DNA of 64,000 nucleotides from Escherichia phage HMD-9. The stretch lies in the sequence record PV287714.1; one strand, written 5' to 3'. The translations under genes were made by a program, and so were the position numbers. Shown here in pieces: positions 56,870 through 61,058 of the stretch (position 1 is its first letter; the number at the start of each line of letters is the position of its first letter). The notes beneath the pieces were generated by a model, which did no database searches, was not told where the DNA came from, and saw only the letters and a list, made by a program, of their open reading frames with translations.

Positions 56870-57505
56870 TCACAGTTCAGATGCTACGGTGATTACAGCT
56901 TCAATGTTTTCTGCCGAGCGTTTAATGTCAAGATACACATTGCCATTTTTAGCGATTTTACATGACATTCCGATATCAGTAAATTTCTGAATATGATGTT
57001 CCATCATTTTGTATCCAAAAATTCGCATATTTCCATTGTTGTTAATTTCAAAATTACGAATTCCGTGAGTGCGTTTTTCTAAAATAGCGAGATAGTTACT
57101 GCGATAAATTTCAATCTTTTTAACAACAAATCTGGTTTCATTTAAAAGTTTTATCATGAAATCTTTATCTTCTTCCATATCAGAAGTAATTTCACGAGCT
57201 TTACGAGTTGCTCGTTTTTTCAGTAGTTCCGGAGCATTTTCTTGTGCGTATAAAGTTGCTGCATTTGAAATAATATCCTGAGCTTCACCCGTAATGATTA
57301 ATCCATCGCCAGATTTCTCCACCAGGCCTTTTTTAATCAATACCCCAATATTACTATTAACTACTGCGTTACCTAAATCTGGATGCACCTCACGAACTTC
57401 TGCAGCTGTAATGAAATCTTTCTTAGCAATGGTAATTAAAATCGCAGCAGTTTTTTCATTCAGAACATCGTTAGAAGCTTTGATGATGTAAGTTACTTTA
57501 GACAT
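56870..57505 (-). CDS. motA: middle-transcription activator MotA
   Basis: 211 aa, T4 MotA size and sequence. Confidence 0.93.
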   Translation of the reverse strand: MSKVTYIIKASNDVLNEKTAAILITIAKKDFITAAEVREVHPDLGNAVVNSNIGVLIKKGLVEKSGDGLIITGEAQDIISNAATLYAQENAPELLKKRATRKAREITSDMEEDKDFMIKLLNETRFVVKKIEIYRSNYLAILEKRTHGIRNFEINNNGNMRIFGYKMMEHHIQKFTDIGMSCKIAKNGNVYLDIKRSAENIEAVITVASEL

Positions 57506-57633: not shown

Positions 57634-57783
57634 TTACTGCATGACTGTGATAACTGTCATGATAACACGTTGAATGCCGAACGCAAGAAGACCTCCTGCT
57701 ACGGCTGGAACAACACCTAAACCCGCCAGTAAAATGCTACCAGATACTAATGCCGCGCTTGTAATACCTATGAATGGACTCAT
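57634..57783 (-). CDS. small hydrophobic protein (49 aa), not in ORF track
   Basis: ATGA overlap with gene 52 stop; Gly/Ala-rich TM-like sequence. Confidence 0.5.
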   Translation of the reverse strand: MSPFIGITSAALVSGSILLAGLGVVPAVAGGLLAFGIQRVIMTVITVMQ

Positions 57784-59108
57784 TTGATTTCCTCTAAATC
57801 TTTGGTGTATTCTGTAACTACATCAGTAGTTTTCCAGTATTCGTTTTCTTCTTTTTTAGCTTTAGCTTCTTCAGCAAGTTTCTTTGCTTCATCGGAAGTC
57901 ATATGAAAAATGTTCATTCCAACTAGTTTATCAACATAAGAAGAATACATATCAATTTTAGAAAGTTCTTCAGTCAGTTCTTTGCGAGTTTTACCTTGCA
58001 CAACAATTTCACCTGAAATCACTTTCTTAATAAAATGTGCCTTGGCAAAGGCTAAACGAAATGTTGATTCAGTTTCTTTGATTTTGTTATCAATTCGTTT
58101 TTGGACATAAGTTTTACGAACTTCAACGAAGTCTTTGATTAAATCAACTACGTTATCGTAAACTTGTAGTTTTCCTTTCTCATTAATAACCGTAATATTC
58201 TGGGAACGACGCTCAATCAACCCAAAGTCTTTCATAATTTTTGCATGGCGTTCTTCTTCGTTATCGCTCAAAGAATATTCTTTGCGGAATTTAACTTTGA
58301 AGCCAAAACCGTGCTCACCACAAGCATCATCCCACGTAATGAAGCCTTTATCTTCAAGCGGGTCTAAGATTTTACTCACATAAGTTTCACGATCATACTT
58401 ATACGGAATCTCAGTGATATTCATTTGAGTTCGTGAAGTAAACTTATATGTTCCACGAATTTCATATTGTCCATCAATTTCAACGACTTCACCACGAAAT
58501 TCTGGGAATTCTACCTTCGGTTTAGTTACTTTCTTTCCTTGAAGAGCTTGTAGTACAGCTTTCTTGACAGAAGAAACACTATGAGGAAGAATGTAAGTTG
58601 CATAACCAGTTGCAATACCGGAAACGCCATTAAGAAGAACAGTAGGAATAATAGGCAAATAGAAAGCAGGCGGAATGTGTTCTTTATCTTGATGTACCGG
58701 AGCATATTCAGTATCTTTATATACGTTATAGAAATTTTTACTTACACGAGCAAAAATATAACGACTTGCTGCTGCCTTTTGGACAGTACGAGAACCAAAG
58801 TTTCCTTGACCATCTAATAGAGGAAAGTTATTATTCCAAGTGTTAGCCATCAAAGCACCTGCGTCTTGCGCAGAGTTTTCACCATGATGATATCCAAGGT
58901 CCGCTACACCACCTGCGATAGAAGCGAGTTTGTGAAACTTATCTTTATTTCCTCGTGCCAAATCAAGAGCTCGAGCAATAACAAATCGTTGAACTGGCTT
59001 AAATCCATCAATCATATTTGGAATAGCACGATTTTCAACCGTGTACATAGCATAAGCCAATGCTTCATTATCAATGATACTTTTTAAATCGCGATTATTC
59101 AGTTGCAT
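57780..59108 (-). CDS. 52: topoisomerase II medium subunit gp52
   Basis: 442 aa, position. Confidence 0.94.
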   Translation of the reverse strand: MQLNNRDLKSIIDNEALAYAMYTVENRAIPNMIDGFKPVQRFVIARALDLARGNKDKFHKLASIAGGVADLGYHHGENSAQDAGALMANTWNNNFPLLDGQGNFGSRTVQKAAASRYIFARVSKNFYNVYKDTEYAPVHQDKEHIPPAFYLPIIPTVLLNGVSGIATGYATYILPHSVSSVKKAVLQALQGKKVTKPKVEFPEFRGEVVEIDGQYEIRGTYKFTSRTQMNITEIPYKYDRETYVSKILDPLEDKGFITWDDACGEHGFGFKVKFRKEYSLSDNEEERHAKIMKDFGLIERRSQNITVINEKGKLQVYDNVVDLIKDFVEVRKTYVQKRIDNKIKETESTFRLAFAKAHFIKKVISGEIVVQGKTRKELTEELSKIDMYSSYVDKLVGMNIFHMTSDEAKKLAEEAKAKKEENEYWKTTDVVTEYTKDLEEIK

Positions 59109-59112
59109 AAAT

Positions 59113-59253
59113 TTACCATACTAGTGAATGTAGTGCCATAATAACATCAGAAATGAAAAGCACGACTTGAATTAATCCGAACATTATTCCGTAATATAAT
59201 GCTACCAATAAAGCAGCAAGGGCTAATGAATAGCCCAAGATTTTCTTAATCAT
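59113..59253 (-). CDS. small hydrophobic protein (46 aa), not in ORF track
   Basis: MIKKILGYSLALAALLVALYYG...; ends 5 nt before gene 52 ATG. Confidence 0.5.
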   Translation of the reverse strand: MIKKILGYSLALAALLVALYYGIMFGLIQVVLFISDVIMALHSLVW

Positions 59254-59404
59254 TAGTAGATAACAACACAAATGTTAAATATGCACACATACCCTGAGCT
59301 AAAGCTTGCGAAAACACACTGCTAGCATCGATACAGATAGTTAAAACACATGCTACTATCCAACAAATAAATGAAATAACTCCTAATAATTTCGCAATAT
59401 TCAT
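59246..59404 (-). CDS. small membrane protein, Ac-like (52 aa)
   Basis: ATG at 59404 with SD GGAG; single TMD; T4 ac position. Confidence 0.6.
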   Translation of the reverse strand: MNIAKLLGVISFICWIVACVLTICIDASSVFSQALAQGMCAYLTFVLLSTND

Positions 59405-59414
59405 AATATTCTCC

Positions 59415-59570
59415 TCAACTATTTTTAGAACCAATGTACGCGAATAATGATAAAATCGCTAATACGCCCTGAGCTGATGCTTGCAAAAATACTGAAGTTT
59501 CTCCAGTTATTACTGTTCCGATGCATAAAAAGAACCAACAGAAAAAGGCTATACCGTGAACAAATTTCAT
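59415..59570 (-). CDS. small membrane protein, paralogue of the Ac-like protein (51 aa), not in track
   Basis: Shares F.CW..C..T...SVF.QA.AQG pattern with the adjacent ORF. Confidence 0.55.
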   Translation of the reverse strand: MKFVHGIAFFCWFFLCIGTVITGETSVFLQASAQGVLAILSLFAYIGSKNS

Positions 59571-59577
59571 ATTTTCC

Positions 59578-59658
59578 TCACTGGCGTCCGAAGACGCCTT
59601 TAGTTTTAAGATTGTTACGATAGAACTGCATCACGTGTTCGTTATGGAAATTGCTCAT
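59578..59658 (-). CDS. stp: Stp peptide (26 aa), anti-restriction / PrrC-activating peptide
   Basis: Translates to [26 protein letters not shown], matching T4 Stp as I recall it. Confidence 0.85.
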
Positions 59659-60101
59659 TAATATGCCTGCAAAACAAATTTAAAATTATCAGCCAACATA
59701 CGGTTCATTTCTTCAAGTGTTTGATACTCAGAATGATGATTACGAGTAAACGCCAAAGCTAACTGACCTTTTCCAAATCCTGTCGTCAGAGGTTTCATCT
59801 TAGAAGCAGGCAGATAAAATACTGTGTATACCATATTGTTATTTGCAATAGTACGCGCAAGCTGAGACCGACGTTGACGAATATGACTTAGAACTGCACT
59901 GAACCCTTGCTTAGAACGCTGATTACCTACATAAAATCGTGCAGATACGCATGAACCATCGAATTCACTTACTAAAAAGTAAAATCCAGGTTTAGATAAA
60001 ATATCTTTATGCGGAGTTCCAAAAACCCATTCACCGCCCTTGATTGTACCAATAACAGTAGCGCCTGCATTATTCAGATCAGTAACAGTCATGTATTTCA
60101 T
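59658..60101 (-). CDS. ndd: nucleoid disruption protein Ndd
   Basis: About 147 aa from [13 protein letters not shown] with SD GAGG; track start 60149 is upstream. Confidence 0.85.
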
Positions 60102-60161
60102 ATTAATTTCCTCTAAATTATTTTCTACTCCAAGGCCGCATGTATTCATGCGGCCATTAAA

Positions 60162-60377
60162 TTAATCGTCGCAGTCGACGCTCAATTCCCAAAACTCTTC
60201 TACGGTATAAGTTTCAGTATCATTTTCAATACAGAAACGTTCATTACTGTTATTTGCTAAAGTAGCATTAACTGTCGGTTTCTCGCTAGTGCTCTTAAGA
60301 GGTGAAATACGAATTAACTGATCACCGTTATCTAAACAGAAAATTTCACCAACTTTTACATCTTTAAAACTTTTCAT
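60162..60377 (-). CDS. hypothetical protein (ndd.1 position)
   Basis: 71 aa ORF. Confidence 0.65.
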   Translation of the reverse strand: MKSFKDVKVGEIFCLDNGDQLIRISPLKSTSEKPTVNATLANNSNERFCIENDTETYTVEEFWELSVDCDD

Positions 60378-60385
60378 AATTCACC

Positions 60386-60493
60386 TCAAGGAGTATAAAA
60401 TCCAAACGCAGTTGTTGACCATCCCATCCAATATGGGAAATTTGCACCAATGTAAAACATAAGAATATAAAACCAAATGTTTAGTAAATTCAT
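60386..60493 (-). CDS. tiny hydrophobic peptide (35 aa), not in track
   Basis: ATGA coupling to upstream ORF; MNLLNIWFYILMFYIG... Confidence 0.45.
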   Translation of the reverse strand: MNLLNIWFYILMFYIGANFPYWMGWSTTAFGFYTP

Positions 60494-60690
60494 CATTTTA
60501 CACCATTCCAAATTGTTTCAACTACGGATTTTAAACCATTTTGATGAATATCCATTCCGACTACCGCCATCAAATAGATTCCAACTACAACTGAACCTAA
60601 GGCAAAAATCAGCATGAAAATGAATAAAGCCGGAAAAATATTATCGAAAAACCATTCAATAAATGTAAAAGCACTACGTTTACGCTTCAT
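60493..60690 (-). CDS. small membrane protein (65 aa)
   Basis: ATG 60690 with SD GAGGA; TM segment FPALFIFMLIFALGSVVVGIYLMAVV. Confidence 0.6.
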   Translation of the reverse strand: MKRKRSAFTFIEWFFDNIFPALFIFMLIFALGSVVVGIYLMAVVGMDIHQNGLKSVVETIWNGVK

Positions 60691-60697
60691 ATTTTCC

Positions 60698-60811
60698 TCA
60701 CATAAATCCAAAGTAAGCGTTTAATACATCAATCATTAAAACGATTGGGAATATACTCAAAACTACTAGTATTATAACTACATTCCATATAGCTTTAACA
60801 ATCTTTTTCAT
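60698..60811 (-). CDS. small membrane peptide (37 aa)
   Basis: ATG 60811 with SD GGAGG just downstream of an early promoter; track ORF is an upstream extension. Confidence 0.5.
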   Translation of the reverse strand: MKKIVKAIWNVVIILVVLSIFPIVLMIDVLNAYFGFM

Positions 60812-60839
60812 TTTCTGTTCCTCCGTAGTTGATAGGGTA

Positions 60840-60869
60840 ATAATACCACAGAGGAACAGTCTTGTAAAC
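60840..60869 (-). promoter_or_regulatory. T4 early-type promoter
   Basis: Minus strand GTTTACA - ~18 nt - TATTAT. Confidence 0.4.
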
Positions 60870-60876
60870 AACTTTT

Positions 60877-60975
60877 TTAAAAATATTCGTAATAAATGTG
60901 AATACCAATCACTACTGCCGAAACTTGTGCAACCCACCACGCACAAGCAATAAGTACAGAATTCAAAATTTTCAT
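60877..60975 (-). CDS. tiny hydrophobic peptide (32 aa), not in track
   Basis: MKILNSVLIACAWWVAQVSAVVIGIH...; coupled to neighbours. Confidence 0.4.
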   Translation of the reverse strand: MKILNSVLIACAWWVAQVSAVVIGIHIYYEYF

Positions 60976-61058
60976 AATAACCTCATCACAAAAGTAAATG
61001 TTAAACAAATTAATGGAATACTAATTAACCAAACAAAACACCACCATAATGAACTCAT
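60972..61058 (-). CDS. tiny hydrophobic peptide (28 aa), not in track
   Basis: MSSLWWCFVWLISIPLICLTFTFVMRLL; ATGA overlaps on both sides. Confidence 0.4.
   Translation of the reverse strand: MSSLWWCFVWLISIPLICLTFTFVMRLL

Follow-up and report, generated by a model that had tools for sequence, protein, structure and literature searches.

Two Ac-family genes and gene 52.1 between gene 52 and stp of the T4-like phage HMD-9

Introduction

Between gene 52 and stp of Escherichia phage HMD-9 lie three open reading frames (ORFs) of 46 to 52 codons, two of which encode similar peptides. Which proteins do they specify, how did two related genes come to stand in tandem at this position, and what might their products do in the host cell? 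A sequence-only reading had described three single-pass membrane mini-proteins at the place where T4 carries its acriflavine-sensitivity gene ac, had attributed the two similar frames to a local duplication, and had suggested that the products modulate host membrane transport or exclusion. Here, the window denotes the whole 64,000-nt stretch that was analyzed (sequence record PV287714.1).

The ac gene is a classic T4 marker, the biochemical mechanism of which is unproven after 60 years. Acriflavine inhibits ac+ T-even phages, and knock-outs of ac, as well as many point mutations in this 51-codon gene, yield resistant phage (bioRxiv 10.1101/2025.06.30.662393). According to the same study, the G38R change in T4 Ac abolishes acridine sensitivity, and Ac expressed alone renders E. 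coli about 3 logs more sensitive to acriflavine. [quoted passage not shown] Mutations in ac have also been used to score forward mutation (Wang and Ripley 1998, cited in PMC4120765), which proves on genetic grounds that this small ORF is translated.

Results

Organization of the locus

The window belongs to a Tequatrovirus (T4-like phage) genome, and the three small ORFs are all located on its minus strand. The genes of this strand are arranged in the order motA (56870-57505), motA.1 (57634-57783), gene 52 (57780-59108; topoisomerase II medium subunit), the three small ORFs, stp and ndd. The small ORFs are gene 52.1 (59113-59253; 46 aa from its ATG), ac, hereafter type A (59246-59404; 52 aa), and a second gene of the Ac family, hereafter type B (59415-59570; 51 aa). 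The ORF list and the annotations of T4 and Bas41 place stp (59578-59658; 26 aa) as the upstream neighbour in the same packed gene string. The coordinates and lengths given by the sequence-only reading for the three ORFs are correct. From gene 52 through 52.1, ac and type B to stp, the spacings are 4, -8, 10 and 7 nt.

Reading of the sequence revealed a Shine-Dalgarno motif for each of the two Ac-family genes. GAGGAG (59411..59416, minus strand) stands 6 nt ahead of the type-A ATG and overlaps the TGA stop codon of type B, and GAGGA (59575..59579, minus strand) stands 4 nt ahead of the type-B ATG (spacer AAAT) and overlaps the stop codon of stp. A promoter scan yielded 11 sites where 10.8 were expected and lends no support to separate promoters. 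Because the sites occur at chance level, the genes are read as one polycistronic string.

The order ndd/stp, Ac family, 52.1/gene 52 is common to the HMD-9 window, T4, Bas41, RB51, RB33 and UPEC01, and is also found in Klebsiella phages, Mosigvirus and metagenomic contigs; all three small genes are kept across several genera, which speaks against the lack of conservation that the sequence-only reading had named as grounds for refutation. The neighbours of the locus include the host-takeover and anti-defence genes stp, ndd and motA, together with a run of many small membrane ORFs.

The middle frame is ac and the frame next to gene 52 is gene 52.1

The middle ORF is the same gene as T4 ac (PF26944 Phage_T4_Ac; phrog_2501), with the same position and flanks, and the T4 annotation names its product 'Ac acridine resistance protein'. 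The type-A protein matches phrog_2501 over residues 1-51 (E=3.7e-25). It is T4 Ac with one extra Thr, three codons ahead of the stop; in the DNA, one ACT codon is inserted relative to T4, and the 3 other differences are synonymous. Most database entries have this +Thr form, which 329 of 462 phage records match at 99% identity or more, and phage PP01, which carries the variant, is still acriflavine-sensitive (bioRxiv 10.1101/2025.06.30.662393). From the near-identity to T4 Ac, we infer that type A renders infection acridine-sensitive. The placement of the three frames at the T4 ac locus therefore proved right in a specific sense, the middle ORF being ac itself and the ORF adjoining stp its paralog. 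Natural phages with a deleted or frameshifted ac exist (Sf25, P0011), which indicates that ac is dispensable in the laboratory.

The ORF next to gene 52 encodes a hydrophobic protein of 46 aa (MIKKILGYSL...HSLVW), counted here from the ATG; the mechanical ORF list runs on to an upstream TTG. With 45 of 46 residues identical to T4 gp52.1, it is the same gene as that of T4 (DUF7396, phrog_3595) with no notable difference. It matches Pfam DUF7396 (PF24129) over positions 1-46 of 46 (E=2.3e-22; 79.3 bits against a gathering cutoff of 27) and phrog_3595 (E=3.6e-25). Among 9 phages from at least four genera, 21 columns are invariant, including YYG, S35 and D36, and dN/dS is 0.06-0.2 at larger distances. 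The ATG of 52.1 lies inside the 3' end of ac, with an 8-nt overlap within AATGATTAA, and the overlap of the ac stop with the 52.1 start is present in Tequatro-, Jiaoda- and Mosigvirus and in the L012 contig. Because of this overlap, and because the sequence reading found no Shine-Dalgarno motif belonging to 52.1 itself, 52.1 is probably translationally coupled to ac.

Hydropathy analysis shows that gp52.1 is hydrophobic over about 42 residues, and a single-sequence AlphaFold2 (AF2) run gave one 44-residue helix with a pLDDT of 94. This helix was rejected as proof of a single-pass protein, as it is about twice the length of a membrane span and single-sequence models favour long helices. We also rejected 52.1 as a further Ac paralog, the hhalign comparison of the Ac family with the 52.1 family giving a probability of 0.2%.

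The frame next to stp encodes a second, distantly related Ac-family protein

The product of the ORF adjoining stp (MKFVHGIAFFCW...IGSKNS) matches phrog_2501 over residues 1-50 (E=4.9e-26). T4 lacks the gene, the two genomes differing by a clean 166-bp indel that holds exactly type B and its ribosome-binding site. Some sources of precomputed annotation tag type-B homologs as PF26944 Phage_T4_Ac, and the GenBank labels on type B vary among 'acridine resistance', 'hypothetical protein' and none. Our own Pfam-A search returned no match for either Ac protein, the release evidently predating PF26944, and the NCBIfam search with the Ac proteins returned noise only.

The homology between types A and B, which had been proposed from a shared peptide pattern, is real at each level of comparison. 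BLASTP aligns them with 17 of 40 identities and no gaps (E=6e-10), both belong to phrog_2501, and their DNA is identical at 104 of 158 positions, with an alignment score of 3 against -31 +/- 6 in shuffles. The spacing of the pattern had been miscounted; in register, the shared motif reads F.CW...C..T......SVF.QA.AQG. Over the longer alignment, 20 of 49 residues are identical, and the protein identity amounts to 35-43%. The gene identities and the paralogy of A and B are, in our judgement, close to certain.

The two proteins are nonetheless far apart. The synonymous distance between A and B is about 1.2 and is saturated, whereas the adjoining 52.1 has a dS of 0.03-0.1 among Tequatroviruses. Saturation beside a nearly identical flank argues that the A/B split predates the genus, and that no recent local duplication produced the pair. 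In a neighbour-joining tree, each of A and B is closer to genes of other phages than to its neighbour: the A clade includes the metagenomic P0009, and the B clade is made up of Tequatro-, Gapriver- and Mosigvirus forms. Type B corresponds to the sole ac gene of RB51, RB68, RB33, NiC89 and Gaprivervirus UPEC01, to which it is 70-78% identical. These 'ac' genes are orthologs of type B and share with it the upstream flank and the core TGETSVFLQ(A/S)(S/T)AQG. RB51-type phages have no ac gene besides B, the ...KND* terminus of which overlaps 52.1 (AATGATTAA); the B gene of HMD-9 has the terminus ...KNS* and stands ahead of type A. The B alleles differ among themselves by 22-26% in protein, and single copies that resemble B more remotely are present in Mosigvirus and in Klebsiella phages of the genus Jiaodavirus. 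T4 Ac and type B are members of the same family that differ in the turn (IDAS in T4 Ac, TGET in type B), in the number of cysteines (four and two) and in the overlap with 52.1, which type B of HMD-9 lacks.

An alignment of 14 sequences from at least four genera shows that W12, T19, V27, Q30, Q34 and G35 are invariant, and all of them are kept in both A and B. Both proteins, which measure about 50 aa, conform to the family core W...T...V(F/I)xQ(A/S)x(A/S)QG and begin with a hydrophobic helix that leads into a short polar turn. G35 is the equivalent of T4 G38. Because all family-invariant residues are kept, including the glycine affected by G38R, type B most likely works as T4 Ac does. Its dN/dS is 0.29-0.67, and its ORF is intact, with a good Shine-Dalgarno motif, in all 47 phage records at 95% identity or more (39 of them at 99% or more).

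The family appears to be small. When 1.84 billion representative proteins were searched exhaustively with an HMM, 6 small-protein clusters and two spurious long proteins were returned, and a word-indexed protein search for Ac relatives returned 7. The low number of relatives in the HMM search indicates a narrow family, confined to T4-like phages of enterobacteria. A scan of IMG/VR gave 5 loci, too few for a census, and the census was drawn from the phage collection instead. In that collection, type A is present in about 459 records, the full B+A locus in 50 of 552 matching records and the B-to-A joint in 50 records. About one in ten type-A phages therefore carries both genes.

Predicted structure of the Ac proteins

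The model of type B calculated by AlphaFold2 from a 9-sequence alignment comprises a helix (residues 2-22), a turn (23-26, TGET) and a second helix (27-50), with a pLDDT of 76 and a pTM of 0.40. ESMfold likewise models T4 Ac with two helices (bioRxiv 10.1101/2025.06.30.662393), and a helix-turn-helix hairpin is predicted for the Ac proteins with moderate confidence. Each protein contains one segment with a negative Hessa insertion energy, at about residues 6-25. The sum for helix 1 is about -3 kcal/mol in A, and ranges in B from -0.4 kcal/mol (19-residue window) to -2.5 kcal/mol (15-residue window). Helix 2 is amphipathic, with an unfavourable insertion energy of +4 to +10 kcal/mol. The three products are small membrane proteins, as had been anticipated, and the single hydrophobic helix ascribed to each is borne out for the Ac proteins by the one favourable segment; the single-pass description is not, since AlphaFold2 gives a hairpin for Ac.

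The Ac proteins carry Lys near the N-terminus (in B also near the C-terminus) and an acidic residue in the turn, a distribution that would fit a hairpin with both termini inside and a periplasmic turn. The conserved positions cluster mainly in the turn and in the N-terminal half of helix 2, and 7 of the 8 helix-2 positions that are conserved at 85% or more fall within a 160-degree arc. A profile search of the PDB and a Foldseek search with the hairpin model produced no meaningful match.

The joint between the two genes

The outer flanks of the slot are common to all architectures and read ...GGACGC(C/T)A(G/A)TGAGGAAAATATGAA and AATGATTAAGAAAATC... at its two ends. The flank GGACGCCAGTGAGGAAAATATGAA that precedes type B in HMD-9 also precedes ac in T4 and B in RB33; RB51 and NiC89 have GGACGCTAATGAGGAAAATATGAA, which is 2 nt different. 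A megablast search with the joint retrieved 50 records with the B+A joint in its entirety, and about 20 others in which only the part from query position 34 onward is matched. In these 20 or so phages (e.g., Paracelsus/Bas36 and fFiEco06), type-A ac stands behind a different stp allele, stp', which encodes 28 aa (...NLKNFGILGSKNS). Together, the 3'-terminal 18 nt of stp', the Shine-Dalgarno motif and the ac start form the sequence GGTTCTAAAAATAGTTGAGGAGAATATTATGAATAT, which is identical to the window from 59432 down to 59398, a segment that runs from the final five codons of type B through its stop codon and the linker to the type-A start. The Shine-Dalgarno motif and spacer of type A (GAGGAGAATATTATG) are shared with the ac genes of the stp'-ac phages Paracelsus and fFiEco06.

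In RB51, the 3' end of B reads ...GGTTCAAAAAATGATTAA. A three-way comparison of RB51 (...ATCGGTTCAAAAAATGATTAA), HMD-9 (...ATTGGTTCTAAAAATAGTTGAGGAGAATATTATGAATAT) and stp' of Paracelsus (...TTAGGTTCTAAAAATAGTTGAGGAGAATATTATGAATAT) shows that HMD-9 has the RB51-type B sequence up to GGTTC and the stp'-A sequence beyond. This pattern, together with the megablast result, points to a recombination joint in HMD-9 at GGTTCTAAAAAT (59421..59432, minus strand). We propose that a genome with the order stp-B-52.1 and a genome with the order stp'-A-52.1 recombined at the 12-nt microhomology GGTTCnAAAAAT, and that A and B would be ancient alleles that alternate at a single slot between stp and 52.1. On the evidence of the joint, the tandem probably arose by such recombinational stacking.

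The polarity could also be the reverse, with B+A ancestral and stp'-A derived from it by deletion. LF73P3 has a diverged stp'-A block, with an A that is 85% identical and an altered stp' tail, which suggests that the stp'-A block is an old module. In T4, the flank is of the B type as far as TATGAA, and A comes next. We take this layout to be either what remained after B was deleted between the two TATGAA repeats, or the outcome of a further exchange at TATGAA. A simple deletion or duplication from one Shine-Dalgarno motif to the other had been considered for the T4 indel, and was dropped once the stp' allele was found.

Discussion

The explanation that we favour overall, and consider somewhat better than evenly supported, is that the locus encodes a genuine gp52.1, Ac (type A) and a second Ac-family protein (type B), that A and B are stacked alleles, and that the Ac proteins act at the membrane. 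The three ORFs would be co-transcribed early genes. The Ac hairpins would insert in the inner membrane with cytoplasmic termini and with the short acidic turn (TGET or IDAS) in the periplasm, and the conserved face of helix 2 (V27, F28, Q30, A31, Q34, G35, A38) may bind a host membrane partner. Acridines would then build up in the infected cell, the likeliest route being an inhibition of the proton-driven AcrAB-TolC pump. We hold this route to be a tenable candidate that may well prove wrong. Our literature search found no acrB/tolC epistasis test and no Ac binding test, and the term 'AcrB' is absent from bioRxiv 10.1101/2025.06.30.662393, which also summarises older literature that took the phenotype for increased uptake. 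Type B probably has the same function as type A, possibly against another variant of the target. The gp52.1 protein, which is probably coupled to ac in at least four genera, may act with Ac; since Ac alone is sufficient for sensitization, gp52.1 is not required for that phenotype. The suggestion that the locus modulates host membrane transport is in line with the published Ac phenotype (bioRxiv 10.1101/2025.06.30.662393).

The origin and the present role of the tandem can be explained in other ways. The local duplication assumed by the sequence-only reading would take the form of an in-situ tandem duplication of a unit made of the Shine-Dalgarno motif and ac, followed by divergence and by the loss of one copy in T4 and in RB51. 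The sequences ahead of the two copies are indeed similar (AG-TGAGGAAAATATG and AGTTGAGGAGAATATTATG), both single-copy states can be derived from B+A via short direct repeats (TATGAA; TCTAnnAAT), and direct-repeat deletions are described as common among spontaneous ac mutations (Wang and Ripley 1998, as cited in PMC4120765). However, the synonymous sites of A and B are saturated, deeper than the genus splits, between nearly identical flanks; the 35 nt that lead from the 3' end of B into A are the native stp'-A junction, in which the upstream gene is stp' and not a copy of ac; and other genera have a single copy. With two ancient lineages, each found alone elsewhere, meeting at a recombination scar, the local duplication does not hold up as the source of the pair, and we regard it as distinctly improbable. 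It may also be asked whether type B in HMD-9 is a redundant passenger, unexpressed or non-functional, and heading for the deletion seen in T4. About 90% of type-A phages are without type B, which in HMD-9 has lost the 52.1 overlap and changed its last codon (KND to KNS), reaches a dN/dS of 0.67 against ev151, and is unannotated in several GenBank records. Such a fate is nevertheless very improbable in view of the intact ORF and good Shine-Dalgarno motif in 47 of 47 records at 95% identity or more, the retention of all family-invariant residues, a dN/dS of 0.29-0.67 across the comparisons made, and the occurrence of the same protein type as the sole ac gene of other phages.

Other mechanisms can be envisaged for the membrane action. 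The Ac proteins might be permeabilizers, their hairpins oligomerizing into a small polar-lined pore or perturbing the bilayer or the proton-motive force, so that cationic planar dyes enter or stay in the cell, as the classic view of increased uptake would have it. The two invariant Gln and the Ser/Thr on one face of helix 2, a small-xxx-small motif (A31...G35) that suits self-association, and a helix 2 too polar to insert alone are all compatible with this mechanism, as is the energy-dependent increase in dye uptake observed in older studies, as summarised in bioRxiv 10.1101/2025.06.30.662393. However, T4 needs an energised membrane throughout the latent period, and ac+ phage grow normally without dye; Ac expression is reported to be sensitizing and not simply lethal (bioRxiv 10.1101/2025.06.30.662393); and no likeness to a holin or viroporin family was found in Pfam, NCBIfam or the PDB. 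Permeabilization is thus unlikely. Acridine sensitivity could instead be a side effect, with Ac, its paralog and gp52.1 acting at the membrane in superinfection exclusion or by neutralizing a membrane-anchored host defence or another host transporter, and with the A/B diversity reflecting an arms race with that target. The location of the genes among host-takeover and anti-defence genes and small membrane ORFs would be in keeping with such roles, diversity in the ac slot greatly exceeds that of its flanks (22-26% protein difference among B alleles against a dS of 0.03-0.07 in the adjoining 52.1), and a gene that only makes the phage drug-sensitive needs some other selective benefit. Set against this are the PHROG entry, which gives no functional category (unknown function), the literature found, which holds no experimental hint of such roles, and the natural phages in which ac is deleted or frameshifted (Sf25, P0011). 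We give this explanation, too, a low probability, and retain the stacking of two Ac-family alleles that act at the membrane, with the AcrAB-TolC pump as the candidate target.

A bolder extension of the pump hypothesis is that A and B are distinct, host-specific inhibitors of the inner-membrane efflux machinery or of another variable membrane target of the host, a conjecture to which we attach little weight. If it were true, stacking A and B would widen the range of hosts or pump variants that are disarmed, the stp-ac-52.1 slot would be an arms-race cassette shuffled by microhomology recombination, and the family would constitute a natural library of 50-residue efflux-pump inhibitors. Two very different natural versions of ac, found alone or together, provide in any case a comparative handle on the efflux-pump-inhibitor hypothesis. 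Should that hypothesis be correct, these 50-residue peptides would be of interest for the design of efflux inhibitors.

With respect to known systems, 52.1 and ac are annotated T4 genes, and type B belongs to the same curated family and is labelled accordingly in many records; in this sense all three were already known. The two-type or tandem arrangement of ac is not discussed in the papers that we found. Reading the tandem as stacked alleles adds a small comparative note, and no new kind of system; the locus would be a tidy small case of allele stacking in T-even phages via microhomology recombination.

A purely functional analogy can be drawn with AcrZ of E. coli, which has 49 aa, resides in the inner membrane and, by binding AcrB, adjusts the range of substrates of the pump. 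No AcrZ homology was detected for the Ac proteins, with no such family in Pfam or NCBIfam at E<=1 and no sequence or fold match in the PDB. The likeness is one of size class and membrane and, if the pump hypothesis is true, both proteins would act on AcrB. They would do so in opposite directions: AcrZ is a single bent helix that assists the pump, whereas Ac is a predicted hairpin that would inhibit it.

Variability of the ndd-to-gene-52 interval

In Klebsiella T4-like phages and two metagenomic contigs, the position of stp is occupied by different hydrophobic ORFs of 51–73 aa, and in one locus (L013) a hydrophobic ORF is also found after ac, in the usual place of 52.1. These ORFs lie at 737–910 in L008, 755–910 in L009, 720–902 in L012, and 2283–2504 and 2637–2813 in L013. 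The interval between ndd and gene 52 is thus a cassette with a variable set of small membrane proteins.

The stp gene itself exists in a second allele, stp', which encodes a peptide of 28 aa and is present in about 20 Tequatrovirus records, including Paracelsus/Bas36 and fFiEco06 (432–518 in both L022 and L023; the counterpart of window stp, 59578–59658). Divergence from the T4-type gene sets in sharply at codon 19, and the T4-type C-terminus TKGVFGRQ is exchanged for another end. LF73P3 (L021) has CGA in place of the stp' stop codon, and the ORF therefore continues into ac in a different frame. Since Stp activates PrrC, an anticodon nuclease of the host, variation at its C-terminus might be relevant to the interaction with PrrC. 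Upstream of ac in the Gaprivervirus UPEC01, an annotated ORF of 52 aa (L007, 529–687) fuses a hydrophobic N-terminal extension of 26 residues in frame to a Stp-like sequence; either its start has been called wrongly or it encodes a variant of Stp anchored in the membrane.

The final codons of window stp contain an RNA hairpin of 6 bp closed by a C(UUCG)G tetraloop (59583–59598; minus-strand RNA GGCGUCUUCGGACGCC), which is located directly 5' of the ribosome-binding site of type-B ac, the second, divergent gene of the Ac family. Its minimum free energy is −11.5 kcal/mol (z = −2.4 relative to shuffled sequences), and on the plus strand the same segment resembles a terminator. The stp' allele lacks the C(UUCG)G hairpin.

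Phages that are null for ac occur in nature, as follows from two lesions. A deletion in Shigella phage Sf25 (L019, 652–755) removes stp together with approximately the first 32 codons of ac, which is reduced to its last 20 codons followed by 52.1, and the database protein P0011 is a type-A (T4-form) Ac with a frameshifted C-terminus.

Flanking genes and comparison with T4

The locus is flanked on the minus strand by further small hydrophobic ORFs, namely motA.1 (49 aa; 57634–57783) and, past ndd.1, a series of ORFs at 60364–61058 with lengths of some 28–82 aa, in which membrane-like stretches such as FPALFIFMLIFALGSVVVGIYLMAVVG and IWNVVIILVVLSIFPIVLMIDVL are found. The genes 52.1, type-A ac and type-B ac are members of a more extensive cluster of genes for mini membrane proteins.

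The longest ndd ORF of the window (59658–60149) encodes 163 aa and starts 16 codons upstream of an internal MKYMTVTDL start, whereas the annotated ndd of T4 is shorter, with 151 aa; the two Ndd proteins presumably also differ internally, near residues 45–60. The ORF run beyond ndd.1 corresponds in position to the ndd.2–ndd.6 region of T4.
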